A stretch of DNA of 26,169 bases from a virus. A model generated the notes under the pieces. The model saw nothing but the letters and a program-made list of their open reading frames with translations, searched no databases and was not told the origin of the DNA. Each line of letters begins with the position of its first letter. The stretch's first letter is position 1. A program made the position numbers and the translations under genes. The stretch lies in UHGV virus genome UHGV-0156931; one strand, written 5' to 3'. Shown in pieces: positions 1,823 to 15,688 of this stretch.

Positions 1823-3154
1823 TCACTGAAGTAAAAAAACTTTTAAAGCATCTTTCACAATATTTGTTGGTTCACCAATACCGCCACTACCTTTTAAAAA
1901 ATGGTATTCACTCATTTCTGCCCATTGTCTTTTTATATTTTCCTCAGTAGGTAAAAGAGATGAGTTTTCAGATAAGTATTTGTAAACTATTCCAAATATA
2001 GCATATTCATAATTATCTACATTATATTCACTTGTTTGATATGAAAATTTAGACAAACCAAACAATTTCATGATTGATTGAGCATCAACTTTATCTTCAA
2101 GAAAGTTGAGAGCTAACTCTCGGTTAAAAGTGTAGATTATTATCGCTAGAGTCCTGTAATAACAATATCCATAAATATATTTGTTGCTAATTTTGTCGCC
2201 TGATAGTAGTTGGTATATTTCAACATATCTAGCAAGTGTTTCAACCTCACGTAATGATAATTTACTACTTTCAATGAACTGTAAGAAAATATCTTCGCTG
2301 GCTTCTACTGCAGCGGTCAGCCTTTCAGATTGCTCACATAGCATCATCCAATGATTTTTGGAAGTTAAAGTGTCATTATAATTATCTTCCTTAAAGGTAA
2401 CAGGAAGGCTGTATGTAAATTTTATAAATTTGTCAAGATAACGGTTGGAGTCTACAGAAGAGCCATAGATATGATTTATGGATGCTTTTAGTTGAGTTGT
2501 GTTTGCAATTAATAAAAAGTTAATGTTTTTTATATCAAAAACATGTTTTATATTTTCAATAATAGAAATGGCAAAACTAGGCTTACATCTGTCTAACTCA
2601 TCTATAATTATTGTTAGTTTACTTTCTCCAGCTAATTTGGTTAGTACTTCTTTTAGAGCAAGAACGTTCTTTTGTGCCTCGATATGATCTTCTAACAGAG
2701 CCTCGATGGTTCCATCGATAGCTGAATTTGCAGCGTCTTTGATAACCTCTTCAAATTCCTCATTAATTTCATCCGCATTTTGTTTTAATACCCAACCAGC
2801 ACCAGCTTTGAGTACAGTCTTAAGTCCGAATCTGAGGGCTGGTAATGCCTTAGATATTAATTCCTTTTTTTCATCGCTATTATATAGAGCTGCAATTGCG
2901 GCCATTATTGTAAGTATGGGAGCATCGTTGTGATCTTCAGTAAAAGCATCTATATAAACTACTTTATGATTGGTCGAGTTTATTTCAATTAAGGATGCTA
3001 ACTTTTTTGAAAACTCTGTTTTTCCAGTCCCCCAGTCCCCATCTATGACCATAGGTGAAACAGGAATATTAGACTCTAGCAAACTTATTATTTTTTCTGC
3101 AATGGCTTTTCTTTTATATTCATCACGTATATCGAAAGTTATATCTGTGCTCAT
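1823..3154 (-). CDS. KAP-family P-loop NTPase (accessory cargo in the lysogenic operon)
   Basis: 443 aa. Walker A GDWGTGKT (GxWGxGKT/S is the KAP signature), Walker B IIIDELDRC. RBS AAGGAAA upstream of the ATG at 3154. Visibly AT-rich compared with the phage backbone. Sits between cI and int. Confidence 0.8.
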   Translation of the reverse strand: MSTDITFDIRDEYKRKAIAEKIISLLESNIPVSPMVIDGDWGTGKTEFSKKLASLIEINSTNHKVVYIDAFTEDHNDAPILTIMAAIAALYNSDEKKELISKALPALRFGLKTVLKAGAGWVLKQNADEINEEFEEVIKDAANSAIDGTIEALLEDHIEAQKNVLALKEVLTKLAGESKLTIIIDELDRCKPSFAISIIENIKHVFDIKNINFLLIANTTQLKASINHIYGSSVDSNRYLDKFIKFTYSLPVTFKEDNYNDTLTSKNHWMMLCEQSERLTAAVEASEDIFLQFIESSKLSLREVETLARYVEIYQLLSGDKISNKYIYGYCYYRTLAIIIYTFNRELALNFLEDKVDAQSIMKLFGLSKFSYQTSEYNVDNYEYAIFGIVYKYLSENSSLLPTEENIKRQWAEMSEYHFLKGSGGIGEPTNIVKDALKVFLLQ

Positions 3155-3167
3155 TCATATTTCCTTA

Positions 3168-3350
3168 TTATTTGATGCATGTTTTTTTGGATTTACTGAT
3201 GGTTCCATCATTGCAAACAAATTTTCCATCAGAGGTACAGTGAGAGACACCTCCCTTTTTCCCAGAACAAGGATAATTTTTAGCATAGGTAGTTAGTGGG
3301 TTTAATAACAAAGAGCATGATAAAACCACAAAAAAAAACTTACCAAGCAT
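3168..3350 (-). CDS. Small exported Lys-rich, 4-Cys peptide (60 aa), unknown function
   Basis: N-terminal signal-peptide-like segment [23 protein letters not shown]. Predicted mature ~37 aa with 4 Cys and 8 Lys. GGAGG RBS 5 nt upstream of the ATG. Starts ~15 nt after the cI stop and ends 13 nt before the KAP gene start. Confidence 0.5.
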
Positions 3351-3365: not shown

Positions 3366-4022
3366 TTATCTAACATACTTAACTGTTAAGCTTATAATTT
3401 TTCCAATTATTTCAACATCTTCTATCTTGCACTCGAAGGCTCTGTTTCCACCTTCAACGAAAATTCTTCCACCGGGTAAACGAGTGATGTCGCGGATTGT
3501 TATTTCGCCATCAATACTTATTACCCATTTACCATCACGTATATCATCAAATTCTTTATCACAAATAAATTCAGAATTGTTATCTGTGATGACAAAAGGT
3601 TTTTTAAACGTAGAGGGTAGAAATCCCTTATCAAAAATATAAAAACCGTCTTCCTGCAATGCTCCATCAGACAATAAATATTTTACTACTTCTATAGTAT
3701 TTGTATTTGCTGATGCTTGCTTTGAACCATGCCCTGTTGTTAGCCAATTAAGCGAGGTACCCGTTTCAAGGGCGCACTGGATTACCCAATCTGCCGGAAA
3801 AATATCACGCATATAACGCGTTGCCATGGTGCTCTTAGAAACACCTAAATGATCACAGAGAGCCTGACGGGTACCGAACCCGTATGCTTCAACCAAACGT
3901 TCTATGGCTTTCTTACCGCCGCTATTGAAATCCACAAATCCTCCAAAGAAATCCAAAATTCGTTGACAGATTCCAAAAGCGATCTTAAAGTTGAACCAGA
4001 AGTCTTCTTTTGGAGCCTTCAC
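3366..4022 (-). CDS. cI: Immunity repressor, 186 CI type (N-terminal HTH)
   Basis: 218-aa ORF starting at GTG 4022. Segment ERLVEAYGFGTRQALCDHLGVSKSTMATRYMR...CALETGTSLNWLTTGHG matches the HTH region pattern of 186-type CI as recalled. First gene of the leftward operon ending in int. True start may be internal. Confidence 0.8.
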   Translation of the reverse strand: MKAPKEDFWFNFKIAFGICQRILDFFGGFVDFNSGGKKAIERLVEAYGFGTRQALCDHLGVSKSTMATRYMRDIFPADWVIQCALETGTSLNWLTTGHGSKQASANTNTIEVVKYLLSDGALQEDGFYIFDKGFLPSTFKKPFVITDNNSEFICDKEFDDIRDGKWVISIDGEITIRDITRLPGGRIFVEGGNRAFECKIEDVEIIGKIISLTVKYVR

Positions 4023-4080: not shown

Positions 4081-4284
4081 ATGACACCTAACATTTCAAT
4101 TACTCTGAATACACCACATGTCACAATCGAACGTTATAGCGAACTGACTGGCCTTTCTATTGATACGATTAACGACATGTTGGCTGATGGCCGACTACCT
4201 CGTCATCGTCTTCGTAAAGACAAAAAACGTGAAAAGGTAATGATTAACCTGGCTGCTCTGACTGTTGATGCTTTGTCTGCTTAA
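4081..4284 (+). CDS. apl: Apl/Cox-type excisionase and switch regulator (small HTH protein)
   Basis: 67 aa, first gene of the rightward operon opposite cI. Basic C-terminal segment ([20 protein letters not shown]). Position and size fit the Cox/Apl family. Confidence 0.75.
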
Positions 4285-4348
4285 TAGACGTCTATTTTCG
4301 CAATAAGACGCTGAGTTCGATTTTGCGATAAGTTCGGAATTGAAAACC

Positions 4349-4858
4349 ATGTTTGATTACCAAGTTTCCAAACATCCACATTTTGATGAAGCCTGTCGTG
4401 CATTCGCACTGCGCCACAACCTGGTGCAGCTGGCAGGACGTGCAGGAATGAATGTGCAGATTCTGCGAAACAAGTTGAACCCTGCTCAACCTCATTTATT
4501 AACCGCACCAGAAATTTGGCTGCTTACCGATCTGACTGAAGATTCGACGCTGGTAGATGGCTTTCTGGCTCAGATTCACTGTCTGCCATGTGTACCGATT
4601 AATGAGGTAGCAAAAGAGAAACTGCCACATTACGTCATGAGTGCAACCGCAGAGATCGGACGTGTTGCTGCAGGTGCGGTATCTGGCGATGTAAAAACCA
4701 GTGCAGGTCGTCGTGATGCTATCAGCAGCATTAACTCTGTAACACGACTGATGGCGCTGGCTGCTGTTTCATTGCAGGCCCGTTTACAGGCTAATCCTGC
4801 GATGGCGAGTGCAGTTGATACCGTGACTGGCCTCGGTGCTTCATTCGGTTTGCTGTGA
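4349..4858 (+). CDS. cII: CII-type regulator (phage 186 CII / CP76 family)
   Basis: ORF 4340..4858 begins at TTG; the ATG at 4349 gives 169 aa starting [12 protein letters not shown]..., matching the recalled length and N-terminus of 186 CII. Immediately follows apl. Confidence 0.85.
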
Positions 4859-4865
4859 GGTGCTT

Positions 4866-5099
4866 ATGCTGACGAAAGAACCATCATTTGCATCGCTGCT
4901 GGTAAAACAAAGTCCGGCAATGCACTACGGTCACGGCTGGATTTATTTACCTTGTGGGAAAAAGTGGCATCCAAGTTTTGAATTACAACCCCGGCAACAG
5001 GCTTACCGGGGAAGAAATAAAAAGCGATTCCTACAAAGATTTATGGTTAACGTGGCAAACAACCTGCGAACCAAGCGAAAAGTTTTTCTTGGAAGCTGA
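4866..5099 (+). CDS. Small early protein in the fil position; paralogous 5-prime end to the ORF at 5723
   Basis: ATG at 4866 with GAGGTG upstream. 77 aa, MLTKEPSFASLLVKQSPAMHYGHGWIYLPCGKKWHP... The first ~28 codons lie in a 63-bp segment repeated at 5686-5748. 3-prime end overlaps the convergent antisense ORF 5047..5505. Confidence 0.4.
   Translation: MLTKEPSFASLLVKQSPAMHYGHGWIYLPCGKKWHPSFELQPRQQAYRGRNKKRFLQRFMVNVANNLRTKRKVFLGS
4883..4945. repeat. 63-bp direct repeat, copy 1 (one mismatch versus copy 2)
   Basis: atcatttgcatcgctgctggtaaaacaaagTccggcaatgcactacggtcacggctggat recurs at 5686-5748 with C for T. Coordinates +/-2. Confidence 0.85.
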
Positions 5100-5505
5100 G
5101 GTTTACATCGTCAACCCGACCACAGGCAATAGCAGCTCTTTTGTAGGCAGGGTTTAACAAAGATCCGAATGTTGTGGAGTCAGAGTGATGCAAAGCTTTC
5201 AATTTTTGTGCAATGAACTGTGGAGACAATTCATCCTCGGCGTAAAGCAACTCACCATATTGTCGGCTTTGTACGCTTGCTCGTTCCGCAATAATAGCTG
5301 GTTGCCATACAAGTTGGATTGTTGCGATTACAACAACAGGAAAAGCGAACAACCATTCCAGACCTGTATTAGCAAATACAGCTGTTCCGCTTATAAGTTG
5401 GATTGCTGTCATTAATTTATCAGCTCGACCATGGAACGTTGCTGTCATTAGTTCAAGGTAATAACAGTAGTGTAATTGGAAGTATTCGGAGCTTTGTTTA
5501 GTCAT
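5047..5505 (-). CDS. Antisense-oriented membrane protein (152 aa), candidate moron
   Basis: ATG at 5505 with AGGAAT-type RBS. Hydrophobic segment LEWLFAFPVVVIATIQLVW. Transcribed opposite to the early operon and visibly lower in GC than its flanks. No recognised family. Confidence 0.5.
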   Translation of the reverse strand: MTKQSSEYFQLHYCYYLELMTATFHGRADKLMTAIQLISGTAVFANTGLEWLFAFPVVVIATIQLVWQPAIIAERASVQSRQYGELLYAEDELSPQFIAQKLKALHHSDSTTFGSLLNPAYKRAAIACGRVDDVNLSFQEKLFAWFAGCLPR

Positions 5506-6725: not shown

Positions 6726-6952
6726 TGGCTGATGCAATGGATCTCGTACAGCAGCGCGTTGAAGAAGAACGCCAGCGCCATATTCGTGCTGCCCGTGCCA
6801 AAACACCGGGCGTGTCTCGCGTGCTTTGTATTGAATGTGAAGCGCCAATTCCGCCAGCACGACGCCGCGCCATTCCGGGAGTGCAGCTTTGCATTACCTG
6901 CCAGGAAATCGCAGAGCTGAAAGGCAAACATTACAACGGAGGTGCTGTATGA
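6725..6952 (+). CDS. TraR/DksA-family C4 zinc-finger protein
   Basis: 75 aa with CIEC-x17-CITC, the spacing typical of the TraR/DksA C4 zinc finger. Translationally coupled to neighbours on both sides. Confidence 0.75.
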   Translation: MADAMDLVQQRVEEERQRHIRAARAKTPGVSRVLCIECEAPIPPARRRAIPGVQLCITCQEIAELKGKHYNGGAV

Positions 6953-7806
6953 GCACCATCCTGAAATGGGCGGGAAATAAAACCGCCATTATGTCCGAAC
7001 TGAAAAAACACCTTCCTGCTGGCCCGCGACTGGTTGAACCTTTCGCGGGTTCCTGTGCTGTGATGATGGAGACGGATTACCCCAGCTATCTGGTTGCGGA
7101 TATTAATCCTGATTTAATCAACCTCTATAAAAAGGTTGCCGCTGATTGTGAATCGTTTATATCTCGCGCCAGAGTTTTATTTGAGATCGCAAACAGGGAG
7201 GTGGCTTATTACAACATAAGGCAGGAGTTTAATTACTCCACTGAAATTACTGATTTCATGAAAGCGGTATATTTCCTGTATCTCAATCGTCACGGTTACC
7301 GTGGTTTATGTCGCTATAACAAGAGCGGGCATTTCAACATTCCCTACGGTAATTATAAAAATCCGTATTTCCCTGAAAAAGAAATTCGCGCATTTGCAGA
7401 AAAGGCCCAGCGAGCAACGTTTATCTGCGCCAGCTTTGATGAAACGCTGGCGATGTTGAAGGCGGGGGATGTGGTGTATTGCGATCCGCCGTATGACGGT
7501 ACGTTTTCCGGCTATCACACTGACGGCTTCACTGAAGATGACCAGTATCACCTGGCATCTGTTCTTGAACATCGGTCATCAGAAGGACATCCGGTCATTG
7601 TTTCTAACAGTGACACATCCCTGATCCGTTCGCTGTATCGCAATTTTACTCACCACTACATCAAGGCAAAACGCAGCATCGGTGTGGCAGCTGGCGAGGG
7701 TAAATCAGCAACAGAAATCATTGCTGTTTCCGGGCCGCGCTGCTGGGTGGGATTTGATTATTCGCGTGGCGTGGATAGTTCTGCCGTGTACGGAGTACGT
7801 GCATGA
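6949..7806 (+). CDS. dam: Orphan DNA adenine methyltransferase (Dam-like)
   Basis: ATG at 6949 gives [11 protein letters not shown]... (285 aa). SAM-binding motif FAGSCAV and catalytic DPPY (VVYCDPPY). No adjacent restriction endonuclease gene. Confidence 0.9.
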
Positions 7807-10217
7807 GTCATGCCGATATGAACAACTGCTGCGGCTTTAACGAGGCTGCCGCAGCATTCTCATGGAACAGCCCGAAAAAGGCCATTAACCCTTATCTGGA
7901 CCCGGCGGAAGTTGCGCCGGTTTCTACGCTTTCAAACCTGATCACTCTGTACGCTGCCGATAACGAGCAGGAACAGTTGCGCCGCGAGGCACTGAGTGAT
8001 CAGGTCTGGGAGCGTTATTTCTTTAATGAATCACGTGATCCTGTCCAGCGCGAAATGGAGCAGGATAAGCTCATTAGCCGGGCAAAGCTGGCGCATGAGC
8101 AGCAGCGTTTTAATTCAGACATGGTCATTCTGGCGGACGTCAACGCCCAGCCTTCCCATATCAGCAAGCCGCTGATGCAACGTATTGAATACTTCAGCAG
8201 CCTGGGCAGGCCAAAGGCTTATTCCCGCTATTTACGTGAGACGATTAAGCCATGTCTGGAACGACTGGAGCATGTACGCGACAGTCAGCTATCTGCATCT
8301 TTTCGCTTTATGGCAAGCCATGAAGGGCTGGACGGCCTGCTGATCCTGCCTGAAATGAGTCAGGATCAGGTGAAACGCCTGTCCACCCTGGTAGCTGCGC
8401 ATATGAGTATGTGCCTTGATGCAGCTTGTGGTGATTTGTATGCCACCGATGACGTTAAGCCAGAAGAAATCCGCAAGACATGGGAAAAGGTGGCAGCGGA
8501 AACCCTGCGTCTGGATGTCATCCCACCTGCGTTTGAGCAACTCCGTCGGAAAAGAAACCGCCGTAAACCCGTGCCCTATGAACTCATTCCGGGTTCGCTG
8601 GCGCGTATGTTGTGCGCCGACTGGTGGTATCGGAAATTATGGAAGATGCGTTGCGAATGGCGGGAAGAGCAGTTGCGCGCTGTTTGCCTGGTCAGCAAAA
8701 AAGCATCTCCTTATGTCAGCTATGAAGCCGTGATGCATAAACGTGAGCAGCGCCGTAAGTCGCTGGAGTTTTTCCGTTCTCATGAACTGGTGAACGAAGA
8801 CGGCGACACGCTGGACATGGAGGATGTGGTAAACGCCAGCAGCAGCAACCCTGCGCATCGCCGCAATGAGATGATGGCCTGTGTTAAAGGTCTGGAGCTT
8901 ATCGCGGAAATGCGCGGTGACTGCGCCGTTTTCTACACTATCACCTGTCCGTCGCGTTTCCATTCCACGCTAAATAACGGCAGACCAAACCCGACCTGGA
9001 CAAACGCGACGGTAAGACAAAGCAGCGATTATCTGGTCGGCATGTTTGCTGCATTTCGTAAGGCGATGCACAAAGCCGGGTTGCGCTGGTATGGCGTGCG
9101 GGTGGCTGAGCCGCATCATGATGGCACAGTTCACTGGCACCTGTTGTGTTTCATGCGCAAAAAAGACCGCCGTGCCATCACTGCATTACTGCGTAAGTTT
9201 GCCATCCGTGAAGACCGCGAGGAGCTGGGCAATAACACTGGGCCGCGCTTTAAGTCTGAGTTGATTAACCCGCGCAAAGGAACGCCGACAAGCTACATCG
9301 CGAAATATATCAGTAAGAACATTGACGGTCGTGGTCTGGCTGGCGAGATCAGCAAGGAAACGGGTAAATCTCTGCGTGATAACGCTGAATACGTGAATGC
9401 CTGGGCGTCTCTGCATCGTGTTCAGCAATTCCGCTTCTTTGGTATTCCGGGGCGTCAGGCTTACCGTGAACTTCGCTTGCTGGCTGGTCAGGCGGCAAGG
9501 CAACAGGGTGACAAAAAAGCAGGTGCGCCGGTACTGGATAACCCGCGTCTTGATGCCATTCTGGCTGCTGCTGATGCTGGTTGTTTTGCCACCTACATCA
9601 TGAAGCAGGGCGGCGTACTGGTTCCCCGTAAATATCACCTCATCAGAACCGCTTATGAAATCAACGAAGAGCCGACCGCCTATGGCGATCACGGCATTCG
9701 TATTTATGGCATCTGGTCACCCATTGCAGAGGGCAAGATCTGCACTCATGCAGTGAAGTGGAAAATGGTTCGTAAAGCCGTTGACGTTCAGGAGGCGGCA
9801 GCCGACCAGGGCGCTTGCGCCCCTTGGACTCGTGGCAATAACTGTCCCCTTGCTGAAAATTTGTACCAACAAGGGAAAGACAAATCAGCTGATGGAGATA
9901 CCAGAACGGATATCACCCGCATGGATGACAAGGAGTTGCACGATTACCTGCACAGTATGAGCAAAAAAGAGCGCCGGGAACTGGCAGCAAGGTTACGCCT
10001 TGTGAAACCGAAACGGCGTAAAGACTACAAACAGCGAATTACAGATCATCAGCGACAGCAGCTCGTGTATGAACTGAAGTCCAGGGGATTTGATGGCAGC
10101 GAGAAAGAGGTCGATTTACTGCTTCGCGGCGGCAGTATTCCGTCAGGAGCAGGCCTGCGTATCTTCTATCGGAACCAGCGTTTGCAGGAAGATGATAAGT
10201 GGCGAAACCTGTATTAA
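7803..10217 (+). CDS. A: Replication initiation endonuclease (P2 gene A family, rolling-circle)
   Basis: 804-aa ORF, last and largest gene of the early operon, start overlapping the dam stop. Size and position fit P2 gpA. Family assigned by synteny and length; catalytic residues not mapped. Confidence 0.85.
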
Positions 10218-11102: not shown

Positions 11103-12800
11103 ATGCATAGAATTGTTAAAGCTCATCTTGATAACTTCGTGAAAAGTCACGGTATTGAAAATCATCAAGAGGACACGCAGTTCGAGCTATTTTGTAATAA
11201 AGCTTTGCTGTCTTCTCGTATAAGTATGGATTATGAAATTGACGATGTAACAACCGGGGCTGGTGATGATGGCATGGATGGTGTTGCCATCATAATTGAT
11301 GAAGAATTGTGTATATCTTCTGAAGATGCTACTTCAATATTTTCCTCATTACGTAAAAATCATGATGTTGATATTGTTTTCATTCAATCAAAGCGTAGTG
11401 AGTCTTTTGATTTAGGTGATTTTTTAAAGTTTAAAGCTTCCGTTTTTAGATTTATAGAGGATTCTCCTTACTTATGTGTGGATGAAATTCAAAAAAATGC
11501 AAGGGAAGTTTTTGATGTCATAATAAAAAATGTACCTAAGATAAGAGGTGGGCGACCAACTTTTACTGCTAAATATGTTGCAACTGGTTTATATAAAAAA
11601 CCTAAAGAGTTAGAGAATGCTCGGAAGTTATTTGCAAAAGAAATTGACGAGTTGGGATATTTCTGTAATGTTAGCGTTGAGTTTGTTGATCGTGATGAAT
11701 TAACACGTACTTGGATTGATACTTATTCAGTTGTCAATGCTGAATTGCCATTATTTAGTAATGCACCACTTCCCAAAATTAATGGTATAGAAGAAGCTTA
11801 TCTTGCTGTCGTTAAAGCAAAGGATTTTGTTGGTAATTTATTGATGACGGACGAGGGGTCTCTCCGTAATCATGTTTTTGTTGAGAACGTCCGGGCGTTC
11901 TTGGGAATTGATAATCCTGTTAACGCATCGATTGCTGAGACAATTAAAAATAAAGATGCCGCTTCACGATTTCCTGTTTTAAATAATGGAATAACAATTG
12001 TTAGTCCGGATGTAAAACTTCAAGGGAGTATTTTACATCTAGAAAATTTTCAGATAGTTAATGGCTGTCAGACATCAAATGTGCTTTACGAATGCCGCGA
12101 TTCCTTAGATGATACGATGATGGTTAACTTGAAAGTCGTAGAGACATTAAACGAAGATGTTTTTTCAGAATTGGTTCGAGCGACTAACAGTCAGACTAAG
12201 GTTGATGAGACTCAGTTCTATTCTCTTCGTCCAATAATAAAGAAAGTAGAAGCGTACTTTGATACTTATGAAGGGCAGGATGGTCGTTTATATTTAGAAA
12301 GACGTGAAAGACAATTTATCGGTAGAGATATACCTGCAGTTAGAGTATTTTCAGTTCATATGGCAGCTAAATGTGTAGCAGCTATGTTCTTCCGTCGGCC
12401 AGATCTTTCATACAGATACCCTAAAAAAATGTATGAATTGTTGGCTGAGAAAATATTTTCTAATGATACCAAGGAGATTGTATTTTATTCAGCATGTTTA
12501 ACATTATATAGATTACACTTACTTACTTCTAATGCTGATATTCCACAAAATATCAGGAAGTACAAATGGCATTTAATGGCGGTAGTTGGTGCTTTAATTG
12601 CCGGAAAGGATGTGCCTAATTTTGGCTCTAAGAAAATGGATGCGTATTGTAATAAAATCATCACTGAAATGACAAAGCATGGTGATAAAATAAAAGCTAC
12701 TTTCCAGAAGGCTGTTGATATTGTTTTGTCAATTGATGATATCACTGATGATAGAATGAAAAGGCAAGCTATTTTAGAGGAAATGCTTGCCAAGATTTAA
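11103..12800 (+). CDS. 565-aa cargo protein: Mrr-like PD-(D/E)xK nuclease N-terminus with an AIPR-like body; candidate abortive-infection/defence protein
   Basis: Intact ORF, RBS AAGGGA. N-terminal TGAGDDGMDGVAIIID...VDIVFIQSKRS resembles the GDxGxDG...QxK signature of Mrr-type nucleases. Later NGITIV...IVNGCQTSN motif recalled from AIPR-type proteins (unverified). No Walker A. Strongly AT-rich. Bracketed by terminators. Confidence 0.85.
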   Translation: MHRIVKAHLDNFVKSHGIENHQEDTQFELFCNKALLSSRISMDYEIDDVTTGAGDDGMDGVAIIIDEELCISSEDATSIFSSLRKNHDVDIVFIQSKRSESFDLGDFLKFKASVFRFIEDSPYLCVDEIQKNAREVFDVIIKNVPKIRGGRPTFTAKYVATGLYKKPKELENARKLFAKEIDELGYFCNVSVEFVDRDELTRTWIDTYSVVNAELPLFSNAPLPKINGIEEAYLAVVKAKDFVGNLLMTDEGSLRNHVFVENVRAFLGIDNPVNASIAETIKNKDAASRFPVLNNGITIVSPDVKLQGSILHLENFQIVNGCQTSNVLYECRDSLDDTMMVNLKVVETLNEDVFSELVRATNSQTKVDETQFYSLRPIIKKVEAYFDTYEGQDGRLYLERRERQFIGRDIPAVRVFSVHMAAKCVAAMFFRRPDLSYRYPKKMYELLAEKIFSNDTKEIVFYSACLTLYRLHLLTSNADIPQNIRKYKWHLMAVVGALIAGKDVPNFGSKKMDAYCNKIITEMTKHGDKIKATFQKAVDIVLSIDDITDDRMKRQAILEEMLAKI

Positions 12801-12887: not shown

Positions 12888-13922
12888 TTAAGCTAACTCA
12901 AGGCTATATGTATTGAATTTAATAATGTCATCTTCTACCCACTCATTAATTTCTTTGATTCTTTCCTGTAAGGGGGTTAATTCGTTACGGACGAATACCT
13001 TGCTGGCTTTTTCAATATCGCCAAATCCACCAGTGTTTTGTGGAATAATGCCCATCATCTGCGGAGGAACTCGATGTGCTGCCATCATGTCATCGCGACT
13101 GACATTTTTGATATTCAGAAACTCATCCTTCGCCGCGACTTCTGACAACGGGATGATCTGAAGCCCGTCCTTTTTGCCGTTAGGCGAGTACATAAACAAA
13201 TTGCGGAAGTTGCCTGGACCTTTGGCACTTTTCATCGCGTTGCGGAGGTTGTTTACATCTTCCTGGTTTTGCGCGGCGTCGGTCATGTACATGATGAAGC
13301 CTGCATGACTGCCGTTAATGTAATACTTCCGGCGGAACAGCGTGGCGGACTCGTTGAGCAGGGCTGACGGAATGACAGAAAGATAGCCGGGCAGGCCGTA
13401 GATTTCTTGATTAATATCCGGCTCCATCAGGTGAAAAATGCTGCCTTTCGTGAACTGATACGGCTGCGTGGTCATGCCGTATTGCACAAACCAGTAGGTA
13501 TCCAGGTCTAACCCGCGTCGGGTGTATTTTGCCAGCGCAGGCTCAAGGGCGATAACTTCACCGAATCGGTTCGTGCGTTTCTCCAGGTAGGCGTTACCAA
13601 ATACCAGATAGTCCTGCACAAAACGCGAAAAAGCCTGCTGGCTGAGCAGCGGATGAGGGATATAGGTACTGGTCAGAATGTTGCATTTCACCGCAATTGG
13701 TGAACTGTGGTGCACGGCAGCGCGGAAGGTGCGCGCCAGTCCGTCAAAGCTGACGGGCGGCTCATACCAGCGATCTGTCTGTACGCATTCCACATAGTCC
13801 AGCAGTTCTCGGCGGTCCAGAACAGGAACGGGATCGCCGAAGCTGAATACTTCGGCTGTAGTCTGGCTTTTAAGCTGGATCTGTTTCGTCGCCGCAGCGC
13901 GGTTTTTCTTACTCTTTCCCAT
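12888..13922 (-). CDS. Q: Portal protein (P2 gpQ family)
   Basis: ATG at 13922 (ORF 13925 begins at TTG) gives 344 aa, the size of P2 Q. Start overlaps the terminase stop. Position next to cos and upstream of terminase P. Confidence 0.9.
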   Translation of the reverse strand: MGKSKKNRAAATKQIQLKSQTTAEVFSFGDPVPVLDRRELLDYVECVQTDRWYEPPVSFDGLARTFRAAVHHSSPIAVKCNILTSTYIPHPLLSQQAFSRFVQDYLVFGNAYLEKRTNRFGEVIALEPALAKYTRRGLDLDTYWFVQYGMTTQPYQFTKGSIFHLMEPDINQEIYGLPGYLSVIPSALLNESATLFRRKYYINGSHAGFIMYMTDAAQNQEDVNNLRNAMKSAKGPGNFRNLFMYSPNGKKDGLQIIPLSEVAAKDEFLNIKNVSRDDMMAAHRVPPQMMGIIPQNTGGFGDIEKASKVFVRNELTPLQERIKEINEWVEDDIIKFNTYSLELA

Positions 13923-15688
13923 CAAAAAATCTCCACAATATTGCTGGTATTGGCGGACTCGCCCTGCAGCGGTTCGTTAAACAGTGCGTGCATTGTTGCC
14001 CAGGCCAGATCGGCATGGCTGGTTTCTTCGCTGCGGCTGGCTTCATAGGTTGGGCGGTTGCCGCTGGCAGTGGTGGCGCGACGGATTGCCATAAAGGACT
14101 GCGCTATGTCGGTGTGCCCGGCGTCAAACTCTAGGCGGCGGTGGCTAATAATGTCGTAGGCCTTGAGTACCAGGGCGTTTTTAACGTTGGGGTTGTAGAC
14201 AAACTCCCGGACGGCAGGAAAAAACGCTTTCACGTTCTCGTAAACCCCGTGACCGACGCCGGTTGAGTCGATACCGATATATGTCACGTTGTACTGTTCG
14301 GTCAGTTTTTTGATGGCGTCAGCCTGGGCGCGGAAGTCCATTCCGCGCCACTGGTGACGCTCAAGAATGCGGAACTTACCACCTGGCACGGCTGGCGGTG
14401 CCACCACCACGCATCCGGCGCTGTCGCCGTTCTGCGTACCTTTTGCCGGGTCATAACCGATCCACACTTCGCGCCAGCCAAACGGGCGCAGCGCCAGTGC
14501 ATGAAAGTCGGTCCAGACTTCCCAGCTGTCTACCATGCACGCCTGCAGCTCGCTGAGCGGGAATACGGACGCGAGATCGTCCACGAACTCACACATCAGC
14601 AGATTCTGGTATTCGTCCGGGCTGTACTCCATGCGCAACTGGTCAAGGTCGAACAGGTTACATCCGCCGCGCACCGCATCTTCCACAGTGACTATCTGGC
14701 GGTACTGCCCGTCTGCGCACAGCAGGCCGGGGGCCAGATTGCTGTGGGACAGGTCGATGTCCACCTTATCGGCTTTGTTGCGCCCTCGGTTGAACAGCGC
14801 ACCGGACCAGAACGGATAAGCACTGTGTGTCAGGCTGGATGGCGTGGAAAAATAGGTCTGTCGCCATTTTTTGTGAATAGCCATACCGGAAGCCACTTTG
14901 CGCAGCTCCTGGAATTTCGGTATCCAGAAATATTCATCCAGATACAGGTTGCCGTGGTAACTCTGGGCCGTGCGGGCATTGGTGCCGAGGAAGTAAAGCG
15001 TGGCCCCGTTAGGAAGCACCATCGGATCACCTTTCAGCTCCACCTCGACTTCTTTGGCGAAATCGATGATGTACTGCTTAAAGACGTGAGCCTGTGCCTT
15101 ACTGGCAGAAAGGAAAATCTGGTTACGTCCGGTAAGCAGGGCGTCAATCAGGGCCTCACGGGCAAAATAGAAGGTCGCGCCGATCTGGCGTGACTTTAGC
15201 AGGTTGCGGATGCGGTTGGTTTTTCCGGCTTCCCACCAGTGGCGCTGGTAGTTAAACATGGAGGAATGGAAAATTTCTTCCAGCTTCTCAATTTGTTCAT
15301 CGGTGAAAACATTCTTTTCAGGCTGACGGCGTGGGCCTTTGTTGCGGTTGGCGACGTTAGGGTTTAAGTCGGCTTCGTTGCCGCCATTGTTAAACTTGCC
15401 GATCCGCGCGTGGCGCTCAGACTGGCGCGCCAGCAGGTCAATCTCTTTGAAATCTTTCCCTTCTTTGTGCTCCTTCATGATGAGCTGGCAGTAGCGTGCG
15501 GCGGTGGTGAGCTGCATCTGATCCAGCGGCCCATAGTCACCCCACTTGTCGCGTTTTTTCCAGCTGTGAACGGTTGCAACTTTCTCGCCCAGCATTTCAG
15601 CAATGCGGGCTACGCGGTATCCCTGAAAGTACAGCAGCATGGCCTGCCGACGGGGATCGAGATCTGCGGGTGTCAGTGTGGTGTTCAT
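13922..15688 (-). CDS. P: Terminase large (ATPase) subunit (P2 gpP family)
   Basis: 588 aa, divergent from O; size and position fit P2 gpP. Assignment by synteny and length. Confidence 0.9.
   Translation of the reverse strand: MNTTLTPADLDPRRQAMLLYFQGYRVARIAEMLGEKVATVHSWKKRDKWGDYGPLDQMQLTTAARYCQLIMKEHKEGKDFKEIDLLARQSERHARIGKFNNGGNEADLNPNVANRNKGPRRQPEKNVFTDEQIEKLEEIFHSSMFNYQRHWWEAGKTNRIRNLLKSRQIGATFYFAREALIDALLTGRNQIFLSASKAQAHVFKQYIIDFAKEVEVELKGDPMVLPNGATLYFLGTNARTAQSYHGNLYLDEYFWIPKFQELRKVASGMAIHKKWRQTYFSTPSSLTHSAYPFWSGALFNRGRNKADKVDIDLSHSNLAPGLLCADGQYRQIVTVEDAVRGGCNLFDLDQLRMEYSPDEYQNLLMCEFVDDLASVFPLSELQACMVDSWEVWTDFHALALRPFGWREVWIGYDPAKGTQNGDSAGCVVVAPPAVPGGKFRILERHQWRGMDFRAQADAIKKLTEQYNVTYIGIDSTGVGHGVYENVKAFFPAVREFVYNPNVKNALVLKAYDIISHRRLEFDAGHTDIAQSFMAIRRATTASGNRPTYEASRSEETSHADLAWATMHALFNEPLQGESANTSNIVEIF

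Follow-up and report, generated by a model that had tools for sequence, protein, structure and literature searches.

The stretch of viral DNA analysed here, from UHGV virus genome UHGV-0156931 (26,169 nucleotides [nt] in all, referred to below as the window), carries on its minus strand four genes that its list of open reading frames (ORFs) gives in the order cI, a YdcA-like gene, a KAP gene and int. The two middle genes are the subject of this account. The repressor gene, a cI of 186 type (189 amino acids [aa]; Pfam Phage_CI_repr 3.3e-31 and Phage_CI_C 1.6e-28), occupies 3366-3935 on the minus strand; its longest ORF extends to 4022, the start adopted in a first-pass annotation made from the sequence, and it is the RefSeq start in an identical copy that gives 3935, the stop at 3366 being unchanged. 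It is followed on the same strand by the gene for a YdcA-family predicted exported mini-protein of 60 aa at 3168-3350 (RefSeq WP_001350185.1; NF007463, phrog_6000) and by that for a 443-aa KAP-family P-loop nucleoside triphosphatase (NTPase) at 1823-3154 (RefSeq WP_113411524.1, assigned to PDC-S20), both positioned as in the first-pass annotation. The tyrosine integrase gene int, also on the minus strand, encodes a protein of 350 aa starting MAVRKLTT at 691-1743 (Pfam Int_N and Phage_integrase; RefSeq coordinates from an identical copy).

The stop codon of cI is separated by 15 nt from the ATG of the YdcA-like gene, upstream of which is GGAGG, and the stop of the latter by 13 nt from the KAP ATG, upstream of which is AAGGA. 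The short gaps with ribosome-binding sites described earlier are thus real, and the packing of cI, the YdcA-like gene and KAP is tight. That tightness does not extend to int: from the KAP stop to the int ATG there are 79 nt, and the leader in between is structured. The distance from the cI stop (3366) to the int ATG (1743) is 1,622 nt, made up of the two genes and the structured leader, whereas in phage 186 cI and int overlap by 1 base; in the window they are not directly adjacent. At about 33% GC the two genes are AT-rich, as described earlier: the KAP gene has 32.6% and the YdcA-like gene 33.9%, while cI has 38.5% and the remaining prophage sequence 51.7%. Both ORFs are judged to be real genes and not chance ORFs, because each has hundreds to thousands of homologues and annotated copies are present in 34 complete E. 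coli genomes.

The KAP-type assignment made at first reading is correct: Pfam PF07693 matches residues 15-316 at 184.5 bits (cutoff 20, E 3.6e-54), covering positions 1-291 of its 293-position profile. PADLOC PDC-S20 (PDLC04956) matches residues 1-441 over positions 1-447 of 450 (E 2.9e-171, 568.8 bits), and by this match the protein is taken to be a member of PDC-S20, a computational single-gene defence candidate. The best match in a homologue search is 71% identical, while RefSeq holds an identical protein under the accession given above. A sequence search of the PDB with the KAP family gave no match.

Conservation along the protein was followed in 66 homologues that are 40-71% identical. 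The Walker A motif, G39DWGTGKT46 (codons at 3017-3040, minus strand), has G39, W41, G42, G44 and K45 invariant, and the Walker B motif, I182IIDELDRC190 (codons at 2585-2611, minus strand), has D185, E186, L187, D188, R189 and C190 invariant; both had been picked out from the sequence beforehand and prove to be invariant or nearly so. The NTPase core, including an insert at residues 109-154, is 54-62% identical to that of the window protein. Identity falls to about 20-30% over residues 317-443 (1826-2206, minus strand) and to about 20% over residues 361-443. This hypervariable C-terminal domain is all-helical and confidently modelled. The AlphaFold2 model as a whole has a predicted local distance difference test score (pLDDT) of 81.6 and a predicted template modelling score of 0.78, and the poorly modelled part is residues 109-154, the counterpart of a transmembrane insert, conserved but amphipathic. 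Three KAP alleles, 100, 71 and 56% identical to that of the window, occur in E. coli in the slot between cI and int.

The small protein scores 108.8 bits against NCBIfam NF007463 (cutoff 93) and also matches phrog_6000, and its homologues carry a precomputed Pfam PF27300 tag; on these matches it can be placed in the YdcA family (NCBIfam NF007463/PRK10040, Pfam PF27300). The first-pass annotation could not name the pair as a module, but each gene can be named, one as YdcA family NF007463 and the other as PADLOC PDC-S20. As had been seen in the sequence, the N-terminus resembles a signal peptide and the remainder is rich in Lys with four Cys: MLGK, a hydrophobic core and TYA before a K make up a typical predicted signal peptide, and the predicted mature part of 37 aa has 4 Cys, 8 Lys/Arg and 2 Asp/Glu. 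In alignments of the family the N-terminal hydrophobic leader varies, whereas C28, C38, C46 and C58 are invariant, as part of a core comprising P27, C28, S29, G30, K32, G33, G34, H37, C38, K43, F44, C46, S52, S54 and C58. The mature domain is modelled with pLDDT 84-91. The chromosomal ydcA of E. coli, which adjoins hokB and cybB, encodes a paralogue 59% identical to the prophage protein with the common core PCSG.KGG.SHC...KF.C.DG..S.SK..C; the prophage gene, unlike the chromosomal one, is placed directly after cI. Searches of the literature on YdcA found incidental mentions only, and no function for any member.

A profile search of the PDB gave a single relative of the YdcA peptide, Dis2 (Lpg0823) of the Legionella Dot/Icm system (hmmsearch E 5e-4), and the top Foldseek match is the same Dis2 chain (probability 0.77, 39% identity over 33 columns). 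Dis2 is a small, exported, disulfide-pinned protein near the outer membrane, an outer-membrane-cap subunit of Dot/Icm, which is a type IV secretion system (T4SS) (PMC8486379). It has two similar lobes, five disulfides and a T4SS association, whereas the YdcA peptide has one lobe and four Cys; no T4SS genes are present in the window. The similarity suggests that the YdcA peptide is distantly related to Dis2 and resembles one of its lobes, and it fits an exported, disulfide-bonded module near the outer membrane, with export predicted from its sequence and from the Dis2 structure. Neither the YdcA peptide as a standard companion of cI across Peduoviridae nor its likeness to Dis2 was found described.

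The KAP gene and the small gene had at first been treated as a two-gene module. This failed on co-occurrence, for each gene is widespread without the other. Three surveys were made: of 5,426 complete E. coli genomes, of the 80 IMG/VR contigs closest in respect of the small gene, and of 80 species-representative loci with KAP relatives, in which YdcA was sought within 3 kb. The window KAP allele is present in 34 of the E. coli genomes (0.6%), always with the YdcA-like gene; the copies are 99.3-99.9% identical, and in none of the 34 is the ORF broken. In strains NC101, NGF-1 and CI5 the cassette that carries KAP is 99.6-99.7% identical to that of the window. The YdcA-like gene is present in 628 E. 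coli genomes at 80% coverage or more, and about 600 further genomes have it without KAP at 90-96% identity; beside rcdA this KAP-less layout reads int, spacer, ydcA-like (63 aa), cI. In the viral contigs cI is directly upstream of the YdcA-like gene in 80 of 80; in 75 of these there is no KAP and int is 150-250 nt downstream, two end before int and three have KAP. Yersinia prophages have the order cI-YdcA-int with a YdcA 68% identical, and Haemophilus phage HP2 (NC_003315) has an unannotated 60-aa YdcA ORF at 2486-2668 on the minus strand, its ATG overlapping the cI stop, after which come orf1(S), of 254 aa, and then int. In Acinetobacter and Moraxella phages a YdcA-family peptide is encoded among tail genes, again without KAP.

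The converse is equally evident. While the window allele and the 71%-identical E. coli allele both lie 11-13 nt downstream of the YdcA-like gene, the 56%-identical allele is in the order cI-KAP-int with no YdcA and a cI-KAP gap of 31 nt, and Serratia fonticola likewise has cI-KAP-int without YdcA. In Yersinia and Serratia KAP can also stand behind an unrelated, apparently cytoplasmic protein of 160-169 aa, and in lambdoid prophages of Citrobacter and Cronobacter a KAP relative is found between the Q antiterminator and lysis genes. Within 3 kb, no YdcA-like gene was present at any of the 80 species-representative loci. This distribution points to the YdcA and KAP genes being independent cargo that travels separately.

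Several of these loci have features of their own. In HP2 the product of orf1(S) begins like a signal peptide and matches Pfam tRNA_anti-like. The 160-169 aa protein (gene at 4494-4976 of locus L008 and 4470-4970 of locus L012) is conserved in the Yersinia and Serratia 186-like prophages; inspection by eye showed no signal peptide, Pfam gave no match, and PADLOC gave only a weak one, to the C-terminus of PDC-S48 (E 2e-4). The protein could be a lineage-specific KAP partner. In Photobacterium lipolyticum (locus L014, 5001-8070) the gene after the KAP homologue, which it overlaps by 4 nt, encodes 223 aa, and DUF4238 comes next. The 223-aa gene has no family match and an IS66-family transposase gene is nearby; this is possibly a defence island with a KAP variant of two genes.

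When the window is compared by blastn with KAP-less prophages (that of E. coli B C2566, locus L001, and locus L002), homology stops at 1831 and resumes at 3182. These breakpoints define a polymorphic cassette of 1,350 bp (1832-3181) made up of KAP, the 13-nt spacer and the last YdcA codons, where the sister prophages lacking KAP carry 123 bp of unrelated filler. The final two codons of KAP and its stop are in sequence that the KAP-less prophages share. At the other side the edge is inside the 3′ end of the YdcA-like gene and changes ...KKICTKNSR to ...KKTCIK, with the fourth Cys kept. No KAP remnant was seen in the 123-bp filler and no direct repeats flank the cassette. Of the two genes that had been described as inserted, then, it is KAP, within the cassette, that is polymorphic; the YdcA gene belongs to the common form of the prophage. 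(In a nucleotide search of a phage collection only the int end had matches, to Klebsiella phages, and the cassette was in no cultured phage; the corresponding protein search returned distant KAPs only.)

Prophages with the same integrase at the rcdA site mostly have YdcA only in the slot between cI and int, and otherwise YdcA plus KAP, or KAP alone. For other cargo alleles the breakpoints are at 1803-1811 towards int and, at the opposite end, inside or beyond cI, so that cargo and immunity type tend to swap together. One alternative occupant is a 558-aa PD-Lambda-1 protein with DUF4041 and T5orf172 (PADLOC E 4e-120). Vassallo et al. validated PD-λ-1, now known as SNIPE, which is a membrane nuclease and cleaves phage DNA once it is injected. 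Two others are hypothetical proteins, of 323 aa in CFT073 (locus L021, 5031-6002) and of 314 aa in S43 (locus L023, 5036-5980), adjoining longer CI alleles of 289-292 aa; they have no PADLOC match, and in Pfam only sub-threshold matches to membrane-protein families, and are putative defence or exclusion candidates. Insertions of IS1 and IS5-family insertion sequences in the int-to-cI span of KAP-less prophages (NZ_OY754416.1, H162, and NZ_CP073949.1, H175) show that the stretch tolerates insertions. Taken together, the alleles compared here indicate that the cI-int slot is a variable cargo and defence hotspot that holds at least one validated system.

The glo gene of phage K139 is said to have been located by Nesper et al., in 1999, in the cI-int region of that phage. 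It is a periplasmic-protein gene, termed the 'immunity gene' of the K139 family in one paper, and a cI-int hotspot has been described for K139-like Vibrio phages (Rousset 2022). The published cI-int hotspot is that of Vibrionaceae, whereas the slot here is that of E. coli 186-like prophages, for which only a coarse category 'between integrase and primase' was found in the literature. At the published sites, which include the 'integrase-primase' hotspot of P2, variable genes are flanked by a conserved cI and int, and known defence systems are among them (Rousset 2022; NAR 2026). The first-pass proposal that the slot is a position for exclusion or defence genes is borne out both by the Vibrio hotspot and by the sister prophages with SNIPE/PD-λ-1. 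The region is ordinary prophage hotspot cargo, both genes and the site type being already catalogued.

The leader of int folds into a hairpin with a 13-bp stem, AAAAAUGCUCUCC-ACU-GGAGGGCAUUUUU, followed by a U-run, at 1745-1773 on the minus strand. It ends 2 nt short of the int ATG and buries the int Shine-Dalgarno sequence GGAGGG (1752-1757). The KAP-int spacer (96 nt folded) has a folding energy of −33.8 kcal/mol with z = −5.8, and none of 200 shuffled sequences was as stable. The hairpin resembles an intrinsic terminator, and is placed after KAP, not before it. Phage 186, with its cI and int overlapping, has no counterpart, while KAP-less prophages keep the same hairpin (e.g. at about 4790-4820 of locus L002); its presence with or without cargo suggests attenuation or translational control of int.

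On the other side of cI, PHROG and Pfam searches (phrog_575, phrog_101 and Phage_CP76 across the two genes) identify an Apl/Cox-like gene at 4081-4284 and cII at 4340-4858, both on the plus strand. Laid out as in phage 186, these divergent early lytic genes (4081-4858) mark the pR/pL switch region, and together with cI and int they make up a 186-type lysogeny module, that of a 186-like (Peduoviridae) prophage. The left-hand neighbour of the prophage is rcdA, an E. coli chromosomal site, and int is 93-98% identical to int of the sister prophages there. The record for phage 186 describes a cI-int 'lysogenic operon' transcribed from pL and pE. An operon context for the cargo is supported by this record together with the common strand, the 13-15 nt gaps with ribosome-binding sites and the terminator-like hairpin beyond KAP, and constitutive expression in lysogens, as first proposed, would follow from the analogy.

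Several known systems have a KAP protein to which that of the window can be compared. RdrA of RADAR (PDB 8fnt, 8fnu) has a fold like that of the KAP protein in a structural comparison, at 12% sequence identity. It is deposited as 'KAP NTPase domain-containing protein'; transmembrane helices are not universal in the KAP family. However, RdrA is about 800 aa long (785-796 aa in the solved chains) and has as partner the adenosine deaminase RdrB, whereas the window KAP is of 443 aa and no RdrB-like gene adjoins it, its neighbours being the YdcA-like gene and int; membership of RADAR was rejected on partner and length. PifA matches with PADLOC E 7e-16 over KAP residues 11-252 only, at positions 17-255 of a 720-position profile, and membership was rejected since there is no full-length similarity. 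QatA matches over about the same residues (~11-252; PADLOC E 1.5e-11), in what is a shared KAP NTPase core. Both PifA and QatA are longer, with profiles of some 600-720 positions, and match the KAP N-terminal part only; Qat was rejected with 41.6 bits for NCBIfam QatA against a cutoff of 600 and no QatBCD genes in the region. Tmn and EF_KAP (Enterococcus) have transmembrane helices, as described for many prokaryotic KAPs, whereas the window KAP has none, and a membrane-anchored protein of that kind was rejected as the window KAP lacks a hydrophobic segment. 'Reve', likewise a single KAP gene, comes from a P4 hotspot and protects E. coli (PMC13586616). Protection against phage that depends on Walker B has been demonstrated for KAP proteins whose C-terminal regions vary (PMC13552941).

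The picture that probably best accounts for these findings is that the two genes are independent cargo, of which KAP is a single-gene defence candidate. The candidacy follows from the PDC-S20 match, the invariant Walker motifs, the variable C-terminus, the moron and hotspot positions and the anti-phage activity of other KAPs; a single gene at moron sites that joins a conserved motor to a hypervariable helical tail has the pattern of an immune sensor. Within this picture, that KAP does protect against some phage is rated only a little better than an even chance. In the lysogen pL would transcribe cI, the YdcA-like gene and KAP, with the conserved hairpin just before int presumably attenuating or masking int. 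KAP alone would be an anti-phage sensor-ATPase in which an RdrA-like oligomerising core is coupled to the hypervariable helical C-terminus; the C-terminal domain may recognise a phage component, and ATP-dependent activation would then block infection. The YdcA-like peptide would act separately in the envelope, most likely as a disulfide-bonded, outer-membrane-proximal factor in lysogenic conversion or exclusion.

A number of points weigh against this picture. Validated KAPs differ from that of the window, some having transmembrane helices and long C-terminal regions and others being multi-gene (RADAR, Qat). The window protein has no transmembrane segment (the top 19-residue Kyte-Doolittle mean is 0.93), domain searches revealed no recognisable effector domain, and there is no conserved gene partner, the neighbours differing across the contexts examined; these three points together leave the picture without a killing or blocking step. 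Literature searches found no experiment or publication on PDC-S20, and PDC denotes a candidate. As to expression, a consensus scan for sigma-70-like promoters gave 8 sites against 9.6 expected in shuffled sequence and, on the minus strand, no site upstream of cI, so that transcription of KAP from pL is drawn from the analogy with 186, the scan being uninformative. Finally, in E. coli the window and 71% alleles always adjoin YdcA, and a facultative interaction between KAP and YdcA is possible from this arrangement.

The strongest rival, though itself unlikely, is that KAP has a role other than against phage: exclusion of or interference with plasmids or conjugation, a selfish addiction-type element, or modulation of prophage induction or integration from its place just upstream of int. 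PifA, the founding bacterial KAP, is on the F plasmid, and phage exclusion is perhaps not its primary function (quoted in PMC13552941); in the 186-like prophages of four genera KAP is invariably next to the int leader, and the lack of a recognisable effector would suit such a role as well. However, members of the family at the Q-lysis site and in Photobacterium have no int nearby, making an int-specific role unlikely, and a hypervariable C-terminus on a conserved motor is the pattern of a sensor in an arms race. The neighbouring alleles of the slot, moreover, are bona fide anti-phage genes.

Quite improbable is that the YdcA peptide and KAP constitute one system, for instance a periplasmic sensor or toxin under a cytoplasmic ATPase. 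The constant position of the 34 copies of the window allele, and of the 71% allele, 11-13 nt downstream of the YdcA-like gene would be expected of a pair, and the cassette edge rewrites the last residues of YdcA yet keeps the fourth Cys. Set against this are KAP-less occurrences of YdcA in about 600 E. coli genomes, 77 of 80 viral contigs, Yersinia, HP2, Acinetobacter and Moraxella, and KAP without YdcA in the third E. coli allele, Serratia, Yersinia, lambdoid prophages and all 80 of the surveyed loci; PADLOC, too, models PDC-S20 as a single-gene candidate. That KAP is a silent or decaying passenger hitch-hiking with the prophage, e.g. as H-NS-silenced AT-rich DNA, is hardly credible: its 33% GC within a prophage of 52% GC, its presence in 0.6% of complete E. 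coli genomes and the lack of a promoter signal in the scan are outweighed by an ORF intact in 34 of 34 near-identical copies (99.3-99.9%), catalytic motifs invariant in 66 homologues at 40-71% identity, and a 443-codon ORF maintained in AT-rich DNA, in three diverged alleles and in tight coupling behind the essential cI.

For the separate, envelope role favoured for the YdcA peptide, one specific form can be outlined by analogy with Dis2, and it is doubtful: the peptide, whose gene stays right behind the repressor from E. coli to Haemophilus, may belong to an unrecognised class of prophage periplasmic factor that docks on an outer-membrane machine and blocks DNA entry, with chromosomal ydcA as a domesticated copy.

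The prophage has other possible cargo. At 11103-12800 on the plus strand is a gene for a 565-aa AIPR-domain protein that matches PADLOC AbiU over its full length (E 4e-112). It has gpA (7803-10217) on one side and the portal gene (12888-13925, on the minus strand) on the other, in the classic old/tin defence hotspot of P2, and is thus a second defence cargo of this prophage. A 152-aa ORF at 5047-5505 on the minus strand matches phrog_6315 (E 4e-76) and nothing in Pfam or PADLOC; it is inside the fil region, with RefSeq Fil-family genes on both sides in an identical copy (locus L111), and looks like another moron. The early operon includes, at 6889-7806 on the plus strand, a gene for an orphan DNA adenine methyltransferase resembling Dam, which PADLOC matches as oMTase (E 3e-111) and which is conserved in sister prophages. 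Among related prophages, those of Yersinia enterocolitica have genes beyond int toward the attachment site, one for a 518-aa protein with a faint KAP_NTPase match (locus L109, 5651-7207) and one for a DUF4917 protein (locus L110, 5315-6301); they fit the int-att minor hotspot of P2 (NAR 2026). The sister prophage of E. coli B C2566 (locus L001, 9165-10088) is degraded, with cII and gpA pseudogenes, and retains int, the YdcA-like gene and cI. Some 4 kb away the annotation has a 'retron St85 family effector protein'.

The region can be filed as a defence or moron hotspot in which the already catalogued candidate PDC-S20 lies beside alleles holding the validated SNIPE, and the KAP gene is a cheap and well-motivated target for plaque assays. 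The three natural KAP alleles, which differ mainly in the C-terminal domain, are suited to the mapping of specificity. The likeness to Dis2 is a first functional handle on the orphan YdcA family of E. coli, and if the YdcA peptide does dock on an outer-membrane machine it could cause superinfection exclusion or interfere with conjugation. Should KAP prove active, it would represent a KAP defence made of one compact, soluble protein without a recognisable effector, the mechanism of which would be informative.

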